A DNA stretch of 64,000 nt, taken from Candidatus Poribacteria bacterium (GTDB lineage Bacteria; Poribacteria; WGA-4E; WGA-3G). Each line of letters starts with the position of its first letter. The stretch's first letter is position 1. A model generated the notes under the pieces. It was not told the DNA's origin. It saw nothing but the letters and a program-made list of their open reading frames with translations, and made no database searches. The DNA is taken from contig CBDHCS010000006.1 in assembly GCA_965261125.1 (NCBI GenBank), positions 461,446-525,445 of the forward strand, read 5' to 3'. This document shows, piece after piece, positions 15,526-51,941 of the stretch. The translations under genes and the position numbers were made by a program.

Positions 15526-15615
15526 TCCAAATGTTTTTATGGGTGACGGTCCTGAAACCTAATGCTGATTGGAAAAATTTGAGAAGTTGGGACAAGGTTT
15601 GCAGAAAAAGATAGA

Positions 15616-15687
15616 AGCCGATGAGAGGATTTGAACCTCCGACCTACTGATTACGAATCAGTTGCTCTTCCACTGAGCTACACCGGC
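15616..15687 (-). tRNA. tRNA-Thr (anticodon CGT)
   Basis: The reverse complement reads GCCGGTGTAGCTCAGTGGAAGAGCAACTGATTCGTAATCAGTAGGTCGGAGGTTCAAATCCTCTCATCGGCT. It has a cloverleaf with a 7-bp acceptor stem, a TTCAAAT T-loop and a TTCGTAA anticodon loop. Confidence 0.85.
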
Positions 15688-15828
15688 TTAACATATTATA
15701 ACGTGAACTCGGTATAAGAGATATGTAGTCCTTGATGCCTTCTTTTAGTTTGTGCATCTACAGAACACAAACTAACAGTGGATGCTACAAAAAGCTGCTT
15801 GGACCGAGCTCACGTTACAAATAGAAAA

Positions 15829-15901
<73 letters not shown>

Positions 15902-16177
15902 ATCAGGTATTAAATGATACCATTAAATAAAATCGTTGTCAAGTTTATAAGCATTTTTGCATTTTTTCAAAATCATTCAGTTTAGTTTTGCACAGGGCAG
16001 TCCGAGATTTGAGATAAAAGTTGGAGCTATCGGAGAATTGAATAGATGTTGTTACACCTAAAAAAACTTGCATAAAATTCCATAATAAGGTATCCTTTTT
16101 AAAATCGGTTGTGTCTTGCGACATCCTCTAAGCGATAAGAGGATTAATCATAACCTTGATAGACTGGAGGAATCTGG

Positions 16178-48682: not shown

Positions 48683-49516
48683 TTAAAACCACAATTCGGC
48701 AGAGATAAAATCCGATGCAAAACGTTCTTCATAAATTCGGGCATAATTGATATAAACATCAATAATCCGCAGACCAACACCACCTGTTAACGCACCGTTT
48801 GAACTGCCGACTCGCACAAAAAAAAATGATGTCGGGGTCCATTCAACACCGAAGTAAAATTCTGGTTCTGCATCTTCGGTAGAAAGGGCAATGTCTGCGG
48901 AGAATTGATAGGATGCATGACGGTAAGCAGTGCCGAGCGTTATCCACTGAATACCGCGTCCATCAAGGTTTTGCAACAAACACCCGAATTTGAGTTCTGG
49001 ACGCGGTTTGAAAAGCAAACCGATGTCGTAAGATGTATGGTAACCGAAGAATTGATAATAATCGGAAGGGTGATGTCGTTTGAATTTGAGGCTTAATCCT
49101 GCAGCAAAATACGCACCAAGTTGACGTGCAAAACTGTAGTAATTAAAGTCAGGAACACCACTTCCTACGTCAAGAGCGATCTTGTTTCCCCAATAAAGGC
49201 TGTAGCCGCGCCAACTATAGCCGATGCCTTTCGGGTCGAACCGATAATAGTGTTGATCATGAAATTTGGTAACACCAAAAAACTTAACGCCTTGCCACTG
49301 AATTAGTCCAGCAGGGTTCCAAAAACCTGCAGTCGCATCATCGGCGACAGCGGTGAAAGCATTTCCCATTGCTAAGGCACGGGCACCTACATAAAGCGGA
49401 CGTGCAGTTTCAAACGGAAATTCTGTCTGTCCCAATGCTGACGTTGTAAGCAAGAGGAAACAGGCAGCGAAAACGCAGACGCGAGGTTTCTGGGCATAAC
49501 GTCCCGATAACCTCAT
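48683..49516 (-). CDS. outer-membrane beta-barrel protein (PorP/SprF- or FadL-like family)
   Basis: Signal peptide MRLSGRYAQKPRVCVFAACFLLLTTSALG. N-terminal motif ALAMGNAFTAVADDATAGFWNPAGL. A C-terminal aromatic (...AELWF) is typical of OM beta-barrels. Confidence 0.6.
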   Translation of the reverse strand: MRLSGRYAQKPRVCVFAACFLLLTTSALGQTEFPFETARPLYVGARALAMGNAFTAVADDATAGFWNPAGLIQWQGVKFFGVTKFHDQHYYRFDPKGIGYSWRGYSLYWGNKIALDVGSGVPDFNYYSFARQLGAYFAAGLSLKFKRHHPSDYYQFFGYHTSYDIGLLFKPRPELKFGCLLQNLDGRGIQWITLGTAYRHASYQFSADIALSTEDAEPEFYFGVEWTPTSFFFVRVGSSNGALTGGVGLRIIDVYINYARIYEERFASDFISAELWF

Positions 49517-49689
49517 TTCAATCATCGTTATCTCGGTGATGGTCTTTAAATACATGCGTGAAATCTATCAAACCTTGATGGAAATCCGATTCCGTCATAG
49601 GTTTAGCGTCTGATGTTAGGTGAGCTATTGTCGGTTCAGATTGGACTCTTTTCCGCATTGTTTCATTCGAAGCATCAAGATTTAAGGGG

Positions 49690-49930
49690 TCAAGGTATTG
49701 TTTTCAGTATATTATATAACGTATGTTGATGTGATACTCACGACGGCTGAAGCCGTGTGCTTCTTTTGCACACAACTCTCCTTTGTGATTCCTGCTTCCG
49801 TCTCTCGTGCCTCTATCCTGAACTGCGTGAGGTCTTACTTGGACTCCACAGGCGTAACTTTCCGTCTATCCGACGGTAGTGGGTTTTAGGTTTATTGCAG
49901 CGTTGCTATCTCTGTCTATAGATATACCAC
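49690..49930 (-). ncRNA. putative TnpB-associated omega-RNA / IS right-end region (hairpin-rich)
   Basis: On the minus strand the tnpB 3' end plus downstream about 170 nt contain several stable hairpins (ccgtc-tatcc-gacgg; gtgtgc-ttctttt-gcacac; cacgacggc-tgaa-gccgtgtg). This is the expected location of a TnpB guide-RNA scaffold. Confidence 0.3.
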
Positions 49931-50942
49931 ATTGACCGCAATGATACATTCTTTCTGATAGCAATAACTCTTTTTTCTTATGTCCACAACCACTGCAGGT
50001 CTTACTACTCGCATAAAACTGGTCTGCCTCTATGATAGGGATTCCACGCATCTCTGCCTTTGTCTTAAGTTTTGAAAGAAACCCACCTAACGCACTATCA
50101 CTCAATGCCTTCGCTAATCTCCTATTCTTTAGCAGGTTGGTAACTTTTAGTGTTTCTATACCGATAGCCGCTGCGTTATTGACAATCTCTGTTGATGCTT
50201 TGTGGTGTGCATCATTCCTTATACAAGCGACACGATAATAGATGCGTGCGATTTTCTGTTTCTGCTTATACCAATTAGCACTTCTAAACTTTTTACGGGC
50301 TAAAGCACGATTAGCACGTTTGAGTTTTCGTTCAGAGTGTTTGAGCGGTCTCGGATTATCGTATTTGATACCATTACTCAAAGTTGCTAATGCGTTGATA
50401 CCTACATCTATACCGATAACAGGGTGTGTTGAGGTGTCAACAACTTCGGTGTCCTCTGTCTCTACGGTAATAGATGCAAACCAACGATGCGCCGTCCTTG
50501 AGATGGTAACCTTGATAATCTTGCCAACAAAACGTAATGACTCAAACGTTTTCACCCAACCGATTTTAGGGAGTTTGATCTTCTTGCCTTCAACCTGAAC
50601 AGATTGCTCGTCTGTGGTGTAAGATTGTTTATATCCACGCCCTTTGAACTTCGGAAACTTCGCACGCTTAGATACCCAATTCGCAGCTGCTTGCCCTAAA
50701 TTTCTGATAGCATATAAGGCAGCACGCTGATCTTGGGAATATGTCCAATCATAGCTCTTTTTTCTCTTATTAAAGTTAACGTTGAGGGTTCGCCACGATT
50801 GGAAATTATCACGATCTAAACCTACCTTGAAATCCGATAACGCAGCATTATATGCAAAACGGGCATATCCACATTGACTACTAAACCAGCGTTTCTGTTT
50901 ACAAGTCGGATCTAATGTTATTTTGTGTGTTTTATAAGACAT
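49866..50942 (-). CDS. tnpB: TnpB (IS605/IS1341-family OrfB, RuvC-like RNA-guided nuclease family)
   Basis: N-terminus MSYKTHKITLDPTCKQKRWFSSQCGYARFAYNAAL. RuvC-I VIGIDVGIN, RuvC-II AAAIGIETLKV, and a zinc finger CSGCGH...CGQCG followed by RuvC-III DRDSNAAINL. No tnpA is adjacent. Confidence 0.8.
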   Translation of the reverse strand: MSYKTHKITLDPTCKQKRWFSSQCGYARFAYNAALSDFKVGLDRDNFQSWRTLNVNFNKRKKSYDWTYSQDQRAALYAIRNLGQAAANWVSKRAKFPKFKGRGYKQSYTTDEQSVQVEGKKIKLPKIGWVKTFESLRFVGKIIKVTISRTAHRWFASITVETEDTEVVDTSTHPVIGIDVGINALATLSNGIKYDNPRPLKHSERKLKRANRALARKKFRSANWYKQKQKIARIYYRVACIRNDAHHKASTEIVNNAAAIGIETLKVTNLLKNRRLAKALSDSALGGFLSKLKTKAEMRGIPIIEADQFYASSKTCSGCGHKKKELLLSERMYHCGQCGISIDRDSNAAINLKPTTVG

Positions 50943-51260
50943 ATCTGACTCCTGATAAGGTGCTGACCCCCATTGTGCGTGGTGTGGCAGGACTTACAAT
51001 CCTACCACTGAGTCAGTCTTATGAGTATACCACAAAATACAACAAATTTCATAAGTTTTTGGACCCAAGCATAAATGCTTGGGTTTGTTAACTAAGTCTT
51101 GTCAAGAGTATGTCAATAGAGACATTCCCAAATCCTTGCAAAAATTCATCACTTCTGCTAAAATTCCACATTGATAAAAAACAATCCGTGATAACATCTA
51201 ATAGCAGCCGGTTAAAGTATTAGACATATCTCCAAGTCTCTTCTGGTAATTTTTAGAAAC

Positions 51261-51941
51261 ATGCACAACAATAACCCTGGCACCCTTTACCTCGTTAGCA
51301 CACCAATCGGAAATTTAGAGGACATCACCTTACGTGCCTTACGCATCCTCAAAGAAGTAGACCTTATCGCTGCTGAGGACACCCGACAAACACGCAGGTT
51401 GTTAACACATTATGAAATCAAAACCGCACTCACGAGTTATTTCGAAGGCAATCAACAGACAAAATCTGAAAAACTTGTTACACGGTTGAAGGCAGGAGAA
51501 TCCGTTGCACTTGTATCAGATGCTGGCACCCCTACAATCTCTGATCCGGGCTACCCGCTTCTACAAGCATGTATCGCTGAAGCTGTTCCGATCGTACCAA
51601 TACCCGGTCCGTCAGCTATTCTCGCAGCGGCAGCAGTTTCAGGTTTACCGCTACACAACTTTACCTTTGAAGGTTTTCTCTCTCCCAAATCGGGAAAACG
51701 AAAACGTCAATTAACACAACTTGCAGATGAAGAACGAACGTTAATTCTTTTTGAATCACCGCATCGGCTCTGTCGTTTTCTTGAGGATGCACTCGCTGTG
51801 ATGGGAGAACGCGAGATAGTCATCACCCGTGAACTCACAAAACGGTTTGAAGAGATATTCCGCGGAAGTATCAGCCAAGCATTGGAAAAATTTCGATCTA
51901 CCGAACCACGCGGAGAATTTACTATTGTGATTGGAGTATAA
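51261..51941 (+). CDS. rsmI: 16S rRNA (cytidine1402-2'-O)-methyltransferase RsmI
   Basis: TLYLVSTPIGNLEDITLRALRILKEVDLIAAEDTR is the RsmI/tetrapyrrole-methylase-fold signature. Length 226 aa. Confidence 0.85.
   Translation: MHNNNPGTLYLVSTPIGNLEDITLRALRILKEVDLIAAEDTRQTRRLLTHYEIKTALTSYFEGNQQTKSEKLVTRLKAGESVALVSDAGTPTISDPGYPLLQACIAEAVPIVPIPGPSAILAAAAVSGLPLHNFTFEGFLSPKSGKRKRQLTQLADEERTLILFESPHRLCRFLEDALAVMGEREIVITRELTKRFEEIFRGSISQALEKFRSTEPRGEFTIVIGV

Follow-up and report, generated by a model that had tools for sequence, protein, structure and literature searches.

A tnpA-less IS1341-type insertion sequence of Candidatus Poribacteria with TnpB, an omega-RNA scaffold and a probable translational switch in the tnpB leader

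Introduction

A 64,000-nucleotide (nt) stretch of contig CBDHCS010000006.1 of Candidatus Poribacteria (assembly GCA_965261125.1, positions 461,446 to 525,445 of the forward strand), referred to here as the window, carries on its minus strand a tnpB gene set between hairpin-rich ends. A preliminary description, made from the letters alone, placed a solo TnpB and a candidate guide-RNA scaffold at this locus. The question it raises is whether the locus is an intact insertion sequence, where such an element begins and ends, and how the production of its nuclease is controlled. The reading favored here, with a probability of about 90%, is that positions 49731-51101 (1371 bp) are a tnpA-less, IS1341-type insertion sequence of the IS200/IS605 kind that encodes an intact TnpB and an ISDra2-type omega-RNA, and that has a leader with probable control of translation.

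The ends of the element were set by comparison of 80 related copies. A scan of one genome per species gave 133 relatives, and the best 80 of these, with 64-82% protein identity, were used. All of the best 80 are from Candidatus Poribacteria assemblies; often there are at least 10 copies per genome, with flanks that are unrelated between copies. The family divides into three subfamilies, which differ in protein length and in the last bases of the right end (RE): subfamily A, which includes the window copy, ends in TCAC; subfamily B, with proteins of 394 amino acids (aa), ends in TCAA or TCAG; and subfamily C, with 363-aa proteins, ends in TCAA.

The element itself is biologically ordinary and belongs to a well-known kind. 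It adds one intact TnpB/omega-RNA pair from an uncultured phylum of sponge symbionts, and a screen for genome editing would call for the set defined here, a compact TnpB together with a candidate target-adjacent motif (TAM), a scaffold, and a guide boundary. The leader pseudoknot could be the part of greater potential importance; control of TnpB dosage is poorly known, though the tnpB mRNA doubles as the guide-RNA precursor.

TnpB protein

50942-49866, minus strand: tnpB, 358 aa, a predicted RNA-guided RuvC nuclease (open reading frame, Pfam and NCBIfam matches, structure alignment, and motifs).

The product of tnpB matches three Pfam domains above their cutoffs: OrfB_IS605 (PF01385; 8e-28, 97.4 bits, cutoff 30.5), the Cas12f1-like TNB zinc-ribbon (PF07282; 3e-20, 72.5 bits, cutoff 26.3), and HTH_OrfB_IS605 (PF12323; 6.5e-06, 26 bits, cutoff 21). 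The protein also passes the NCBIfam model guided_TnpB (NF040570) with 274.6 bits against a cutoff of 100, and does not reach the narrow equivalog IS200_TnpB (NF038281), for which it scores 292.7 bits against a cutoff of 425. By its profile scores it is a member of the broad TnpB family that lies outside the narrow IS200_TnpB equivalog.

Among solved structures, ISDra2 TnpB of Deinococcus radiodurans (8bf8/8exa/8h1j) is matched at E=3e-48 over residues 6-353, with many non-identical positions in the alignment. The motifs GIDVG at residue 177 (D179), GIETL at 261 (E263), and DRDSNAA at 343 (D343/D345) align opposite GVDVG, GTEHL, and DRDENAA of ISDra2 TnpB (8bf8/8exa), and the zinc finger is formed by C316/C319/C335/C338 (CSGC at 316 and CGQC at 335). 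The catalytic residues D179, E263, and D345 and the zinc finger do not vary in the 12 family members aligned. The preliminary description had named the protein as TnpB with RuvC-I, -II, and -III motifs and a CxxC zinc finger, and had judged that it looks catalytically intact, subject to a proper RuvC alignment; the positions as read, the Pfam and NCBIfam matches, and the alignment with ISDra2 TnpB bear out both the identity and the triad. As judged from sequence, TnpB is intact in its RuvC D-E-D triad and its zinc finger. Because the ratio of nonsynonymous to synonymous substitution rates (dN/dS) is 0.12-0.16 against five relatives, with synonymous sites close to saturation, tnpB has been under long-term purifying selection.

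The best match of all among solved structures is 9yyg, described as an 'AI-designed RNA-guided nuclease' (E=9e-56), which ranks above the natural ISDra2 TnpB.

Omega-RNA scaffold and guide

49897-49731, minus strand: omega-RNA scaffold, overlapping the last 32 nt of tnpB (covariance model R2, covariation, and homology to ISDra2-like elements).
49730-49711, minus strand: guide template ATCAACATACGTTATATAAT, in flanking DNA (all copies diverge right after ...GAGTATCAC).

The 3' end of tnpB and the DNA beyond it contain a conserved RNA structure. An alignment of 29 diverse 3' regions was folded into stems with RNAalifold, and the covariance model R2 was built from it. Stem 1 (CCGTC/GACGG, 49876-49862), which holds the tnpB stop codon TAG in its loop, has two pairs with compensatory changes in 16 and 17 of the 29 sequences. 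A long-range stem joins 49852-49848 to 49795-49791, and one of its pairs shows 11 compensatory changes; an inner stem, CCTC/GAGG, lies within 49834-49809; and a short GUC/GAC helix is the fourth that covariation supports. Over 18 pairs, 94.6% of cells pair, against 84.6% in shuffled and 36-49% in slid alignments. Double-changed cells number 58 against 20.5 in shuffles, eight pairs have double changes, and none of 500 shuffles reaches the observed score. G.U cells (44) far outnumber A.C cells (2) in these helices, as expected for an RNA of the sense strand.

R2 scores 147 bits over 49897-49731 of the window, the highest of all sequences tested. A metagenome scan with a protein-alignment query returned mostly relatives at 33-43% protein identity, which served as a test set for the RNA models; R2 matches the tnpB 3' end in more than 50 loci with proteins in this range of identity. 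It also matches at the tnpB 3' end of two Deinococcus plasmid elements, L167 and L168 (43.5 and 35.7 bits; E=1e-8 and 6e-7), with TnpB proteins 81-82% identical to that of ISDra2; these stand in for ISDra2 itself, which is absent from the collections searched. The Deinococcus matches and the Poribacteria scaffold have the architecture ...GAAUCAC-hairpin-GAG..UCAA in common, and the ISDra2 and Poribacteria scaffolds alike end in ...GAAUCAC-hairpin-GAG..UCA(A/C) right before the guide. Unlike that of ISDra2, the Poribacteria scaffold has an additional stem, GUGUGC/GCACAC, ahead of the RE hairpin. The position of the omega-RNA (also called reRNA), its conserved core, and the R2 matches support an ISDra2-type scaffold at this 3' region. 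The preliminary description had proposed that the hairpin-rich 3' end is a guide-RNA scaffold and that it should resemble known omega-RNA scaffolds in structure; the covarying stems and the R2 matches at the equivalent position in ISDra2-like elements (E=1e-8 at best) agree with it on both points.

Two of its boundaries shift. It had extended the scaffold from about 49930 to 49700, and the hairpins in this range are real and conserved, but bases 49730-49700 are flank that includes the guide template. It had also placed the guide immediately beyond the RE, near or below 49700; the adjacency holds, but the guide would start at 49730, about 30 nt away, right after an RE that ends at 49731. A guide length of 16-20 nt is assumed from ISDra2. 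A 16-mer of the guide is unique in the window, which contains no second target.

Similar arrangements have been described in Halobacterium, in which IS1341-type elements with only tnpB have non-coding RNAs that overlap the 3' end of the gene in the sense direction (PMC4615843). Those elements resemble this one as a solo tnpB with such an RNA, and differ in phylum and sequence family; the work predates the omega-RNA concept, and its accessible part describes no leader switch (PMC4615843).

Known Rfam families do not cover the element. IS605-orfB-I (RF03065), RAGATH-18 (RF03064), and HEARO (RF02033) give no match at E<=10 in 49000-51600 or in scans of either end, and no family above threshold covers the element in scans of the region, of each end, and of eight relatives. 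RAGATH-18 gives a weak match of 28.4 bits in a Xylella locus. A match below threshold (18.9 bits against 37) to HPnc0580, a small RNA of Helicobacter pylori, lies at 49876-49832 (minus strand), over stem 1 and the following AAAGUUACGCCU. H. pylori is the host of IS608. HPnc0580 may in its own right be an omega-RNA of IS605/IS606.

In the window copy, the TAG in the stem-1 loop ends translation at residue 358, unlike in copies that read through. In these (L032-L055 and L054, from subfamily B and others) the reading frame runs through omega-RNA stem 1 and gains 32-39 codons encoded by the scaffold (...ACGVQIRP...EAGKV...).

A solo, tnpA-less tnpB beside host genes is also what a domesticated, nuclease-dead TnpB of the TldR type would look like, with a guide RNA that represses transcription of a host gene. 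This is barely conceivable here: the intact and invariant D179/E263/D345 and zinc finger contradict it, in all copies the guide region is nothing but the flank, which varies; the many copies of the family sit in unrelated flanks; and a second target for the guide is absent from the window.

Element ends and target site

51101-50943, minus strand: left end (LE), with subterminal hairpin, promoter, and tnpB leader (DNA similarity to relatives).
51084-51063, minus strand: LE subterminal palindrome IP_L, ACCCAAGCA TTTA TGCTTGGGT (exact in sequence; homologous TTTA-loop hairpin in relatives).
49759-49739, minus strand: RE imperfect palindrome IP_R, CACACGGC TTCA GCCGT(C)GTG, with a bulged C; then AGTATCAC, the RE terminus.
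51105-51102, minus strand: putative TnpA target and TnpB TAM, TTGA, directly 5' of the LE (family consensus (A/T)TGA; flank conservation).

DNA similarity between the window and its relatives spans from about 51098-51106 to 49731-49722. The RE of every copy ends in ...CCGTCGTGAGTATCAC, with divergence from the next base on, and the boundary is sharp at ...GAGTATCAC (49731); because all copies diverge at the base that follows, 49731 is the last base of the RE. The preliminary description had set this boundary near 49700, which the copies do not allow, since their similarity stops exactly at 49731 and 49730-49700 is flank. It had also asked whether further genomic copies would leave the hairpin region outside the element; the ends of the 80 related copies keep it inside.

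At the LE, the palindrome at 51063-51084 is not a chance occurrence, because relatives keep a TTTA-loop hairpin at the equivalent place; the aligned left ends of relatives identify it, as first proposed, with the LE subterminal hairpin. At the other end, a TTTA-loop hairpin precedes the RE terminus in subfamilies A, B, and C. Subterminal imperfect palindromes are present at both ends, and the ends are sharp and common to many copies, as in the IS200/IS605 family.

The RE follows the cleavage-site rule of IS608-type elements across subfamilies. In IS608 of H. pylori, which likewise has subterminal imperfect palindromes at both ends, the tetranucleotide GAAT reads TCAA. In the present family, a tetranucleotide GAAN' that adjoins the hairpin on its 5' side reads TCAN at the RE terminus, and the two covary between subfamilies as GAAG/TCAC, GAAT/TCAA, and GAAC/TCAG; in each case the fourth base of the tetranucleotide is the complement of the final base of the element (C, A, and G, respectively). 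Subfamily C has exactly the GAAT/TCAA of IS608. In the window copy, the terminus TCAC fits the upstream 'guide' tetranucleotide GAAG. The corresponding rule at the LE is followed by subfamily B (AAAA/TTAT) and in part by subfamilies A and C (CAAT/ATGA).

TGAA occurs without variation at 33 independent insertion sites, preceded by A at 23, T at 7, G at 2, and C at 1. In subfamily B the LE opens instead with TTAT(C), which does not vary and follows an unconstrained base. From the conservation of the flanks, the target and TAM of the window's group would be (A/T)TGA, which places TTGA of the window at 51105-51102 and the start of the element at 51101, within the range 51090-51110 where the TAM had been expected. 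By analogy to IS608, cleavage would fall after TGA or after TGAA. The LE site of IS608 is TTAC and the TAM of ISDra2 is TTGAT; the putative (A/T)TGA differs from both.

The first 24 nt of the window LE have 5-7 differences from the commonest form and resemble variants in subfamilies B and C. The absence of the subfamily A hairpin GGGAATT/AATCCC from this end was considered as a sign of decay and rejected as proof of it: the hairpin is also absent in subfamilies B and C, and the CAAGA at the start of the window LE matches subfamily B. Comparison of the window flanks with the flanks of all 80 loci gave no orthologous insertion and no empty site; the likeness to the flank of L026 is 9 nt only.

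The structure of the ends also bears on whether the element is of IS607 type, moved by a serine recombinase and not by the single-strand Y1 mechanism. The closest plasmid-borne homologues (about 40% identity) adjoin IS607 serine recombinase genes, and TnpB scores 222 bits with the NCBIfam model IS607_TnpB. TnpB reaches more with the IS200_TnpB model (292.7 bits); the ends have subterminal hairpins and conform to the IS608 G_R/C_R rule; the omega-RNA is of ISDra2 type and not RAGATH-18; and no recombinase gene is present, all of which make an IS607-type element very improbable and leave the IS200/IS605 assignment in place.

tnpB leader

51052-51024, minus strand: promoter-like site, -35 ATGAAA (weak), 17-nt spacer, TG-extended -10 TATACT (TGgTATACT) (consensus scan only).
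51016-50945, minus strand: tnpB leader pseudoknot, 76 nt, with two alternative closing helices (covariation and covariance model R1).
51016-51010, minus strand: strand X.
51005-50987, minus strand: hairpin P2.
About 50978-50973, minus strand: 3' strand of the pseudoknot.
50969-50963, minus strand: strand X'.
50952-50945, minus strand: strand X'', GGAGTCAG, overlapping the Shine-Dalgarno site.

Between the subterminal hairpin of the LE and tnpB there is a second conserved structure. At the aligned promoter position, relatives have TTGACA-17-TGnTATAAT; the leader motif begins a few nt past this conserved extended -10 and ends at the start codon. Read 5' to 3', the motif in subfamilies A, B, and C consists of X, AGUG, hairpin P2, CACACC, the strand that closes the pseudoknot with the loop of P2, (U/A)GGGA, and X'; some 10 nt of linker then lead to X'' and the start codon. 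The junction bases AGUG, CACACC, and GGGA hint at a tertiary contact or a binding site.

Covariation argues for all three helices. In 36 sequences, 93.5% of cells pair, against 65% in shuffled and 33-50% in slid alignments, and double-changed cells number 201 against 56 in shuffles. Compensatory changes occur at all six pseudoknot pairs. X and X' pair in 91.7% of cells, with double changes at five of seven pairs.

The strand X'' is a near-copy of X' and covaries with X too: of 59 distinct leaders, 85% form at least six of the seven X:X'' base pairs, compared with 16% for cross-lineage controls, and X occurs in 21 variants. The helices X:X' and X:X'' are mutually exclusive and of similar stability, with X:X'' equal or stronger in 46 of the 59; nested folding, which is blind to the pseudoknot, picks X:X'' in four of five cases. 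In the window copy and in subfamilies A and B, X'' contains a GGAG, GGAA, or AGGA ribosome-binding site that precedes the ATG by 7-8 nt. For subfamily C, X'' lies 10-13 nt upstream of the start, and the Shine-Dalgarno sequence is less clear.

R1, a covariance model of the nested part of the leader, scores 78 bits on the window leader and matches exactly once per tnpB copy (74 matches in 454 kb), with no other match in the window. It gives no match in 88 more distant tnpB loci (6 plasmid, 80 metagenome, and 2 Deinococcus). The leader motif has no Rfam match, and on this ground its identity with a known riboswitch or ribozyme was rejected. The leader motif appears to be confined to an expanding transposon clade of sponge-symbiont Poribacteria.

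From these sequence relationships, the leader is probably a translational switch. More tentatively, it may represent an undescribed class of cis-acting RNA switch, in which a pseudoknotted sensor has a closing strand that flips from X', a decoy, to X'' at the ribosome-binding site or back, and sets the amount of TnpB made per transcript. Nothing relevant to a TnpB leader switch or to TnpB in Poribacteria was found in the searched literature. The leader may be the first regulatory RNA dedicated to TnpB expression, because none was found in the searched literature or Rfam. Whatever its class, a leader pseudoknot with two covarying helices over a ribosome-binding site is a directly testable regulatory element and, among mobile elements, a clear natural case of a bistable leader.

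A different view of the leader fold is that it serves transposition as a structure in single-stranded DNA, or that it is a mere stabilizer of the 5' terminus without switching. Transposition of IS200/IS605 elements proceeds through single strands, and the motif is part of the LE; covariation does not by itself distinguish RNA from single-stranded DNA of the top strand; and the leader has no known ligand or partner. The composition of the helices suits RNA better than DNA, with 49 G.U (G.T) cells against 13 A.C, and for the same asymmetry a structure of the antisense strand or of DNA was judged unlikely. The motif runs from just past the conserved extended -10 to the start codon, and X'', placed over the ribosome-binding region, keeps its covariation with X across 21 distinct variants, which a simple stabilizer does not need. 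TnpA of characterized relatives such as IS608 requires only the subterminal hairpin. On balance a non-regulatory leader is unlikely, and a translational switch is preferred.

Other transposon leaders offer partial parallels. In IS200 of Salmonella, a stem-loop in the tnpA leader hides the Shine-Dalgarno site and keeps expression low. That leader and the one described here are alike in being transposon-encoded structures that cover, or in the present case would cover, a ribosome-binding site, and differ in that the IS200 structure controls tnpA and not tnpB, is a single hairpin and not a two-helix pseudoknot, and has no sequence or model similarity to the tnpB leader (no Rfam match). Solo copies of ISDra2-like elements have a leader of two simple hairpins without an R1 match, unlike the Poribacteria pseudoknot; in the Deinococcus loci (L167:800-865 and L168:803-868) the second of the two hairpins encloses a GGAGG ribosome-binding site. 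Solo tnpB elements may thus have come to occlude the start region repeatedly.

A larger variant of the leader, read by eye, is present about 100 nt upstream of tnpB in L065, L067, L070, L072, L077, and L079. It apparently has the same topology (a 5' strand, a hairpin with a loop that pairs downstream, and two direct copies of the partner strand), with other conserved bases (GUGG, GACCGAC, and GCGGUUAAAG) and a hairpin inserted in the loop. In L009 (1880-1925) the promoter segment tacatgtattttgtggtata is tandemly duplicated upstream of the leader. In L017 the segment between the direct copies X' and X'' is deleted, in a manner that resembles recombination between repeats.

Transposase and mobility

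No tnpA accompanies the element. A tblastn search of the window and of 2 kb on either side of the 80 relatives gave only chance-level matches to a Y1 probe, a search with one probe being weaker than one with a profile. The start of the LE is 159 nt from the tnpB ATG, with no tnpA between, and none lies between LE and tnpB in any related copy with an aligned left end. The arrangement is a solo tnpB of IS1341-like type, as the preliminary description had stated, and it is non-autonomous because no tnpA lies within the element; in this it differs from ISDra2, which has tnpA, and from IS608. Further copies were not found in the 64-kb window by blastn or tblastn, so the element is single-copy there, and an exact-protein look-up in the assembly index gave no identical copy of the 358-aa protein. 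The metagenome scan brought up neither an empty site nor a TnpA partner. Near-identical copies at many sites in single genomes imply that a transposase acts in trans in those genomes; the growth of the family to dozens of copies in a Poribacteria genome, with no tnpA inside the element, raises the question of which transposase moves it.

Several points weigh against the reading of the locus as an intact, functional insertion sequence. At the LE, the window has the tetranucleotide CAAA in place of CAAT, which would break the expected pairing with TTGA, and its site is TTGAC where the family consensus is ATGAA. The -35 box of the window copy (ATGAAA) is weak, and the search for TnpA described above came back empty. 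The nuclease activity of TnpB is a prediction from its sequence; the TAM is a candidate drawn from flank conservation; and the omega-RNA, its 5' end, and the length of its guide are putative, modeled on related elements. Since the LE tetranucleotide CAAA does not pair with TTGA, the mobility of the window copy is uncertain.

These same features could mark an immobile relic, in which TnpB and the omega-RNA persist by their own retention activity or only through recent descent. Such a relic would explain the lack of tnpA in the window, the LE cleavage-site and guide bases that are off consensus (TGAC/CAAA against TGAA/CAAT), the degraded -35 (ATGAAA against TTGACA in relatives), and the single copy in 64 kb. 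Seven of the 80 relatives (L003, L017, L031, L056, L059, L060, and L068) are already pseudogenes with early stop codons. The window copy has a full-length open reading frame with low dN/dS, the top-scoring omega-RNA scaffold of all tested, and an intact leader motif, and its variant LE bases (CAAGA...) also occur in the expanding subfamily B and may be tolerated. A relic is somewhat unlikely, and is compatible with, not opposed to, an IS1341-type element with intact TnpB, omega-RNA, and leader.

Proposed mechanism

The paradigms of ISDra2 and IS608 suggest how such an element would work. The promoter in the LE would give rise to the tnpB mRNA, and the 3' part of this mRNA would be processed to an omega-RNA of about 150-170 nt that reaches 16-20 nt into the flank (ATCAACATACG...). 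The complex of TnpB and omega-RNA would cleave any copy of the locus from which the element is gone (TTGA plus flank), and the cut would force repair from the copy that bears the element, which would thereby be retained. To move, the element would depend on a Y1 TnpA provided in trans.

The leader would most likely gate or limit translation of TnpB. When the pseudoknot domain is closed by X:X', the start site would be open; when X is paired with X'', the ribosome-binding site would be covered and the start closed. The order of synthesis may set the timing: X' would be made first and allow a brief open state, after which X'' would displace X'. A ligand or a protein, such as TnpB itself, is an equally possible trigger.

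Genomic setting

The element sits in an intergenic gap between housekeeping genes. A 290-aa open reading frame beside the RE (48683-49555, minus strand) has no Pfam match, and the interval from the RE (49731) to the start of this frame at 49555 contains the guide template. Genes for tRNA-Thr (CGT) and tRNA-Phe (GAA) at 15614-15902 (minus strand) are the sole matches in the window to Rfam at the gathering threshold or to ARAGORN. Among the relatives, the flank of L004 (390-488, minus strand) contains a thiamine pyrophosphate (TPP) riboswitch above threshold (67.7 bits), which has no relation to the element.

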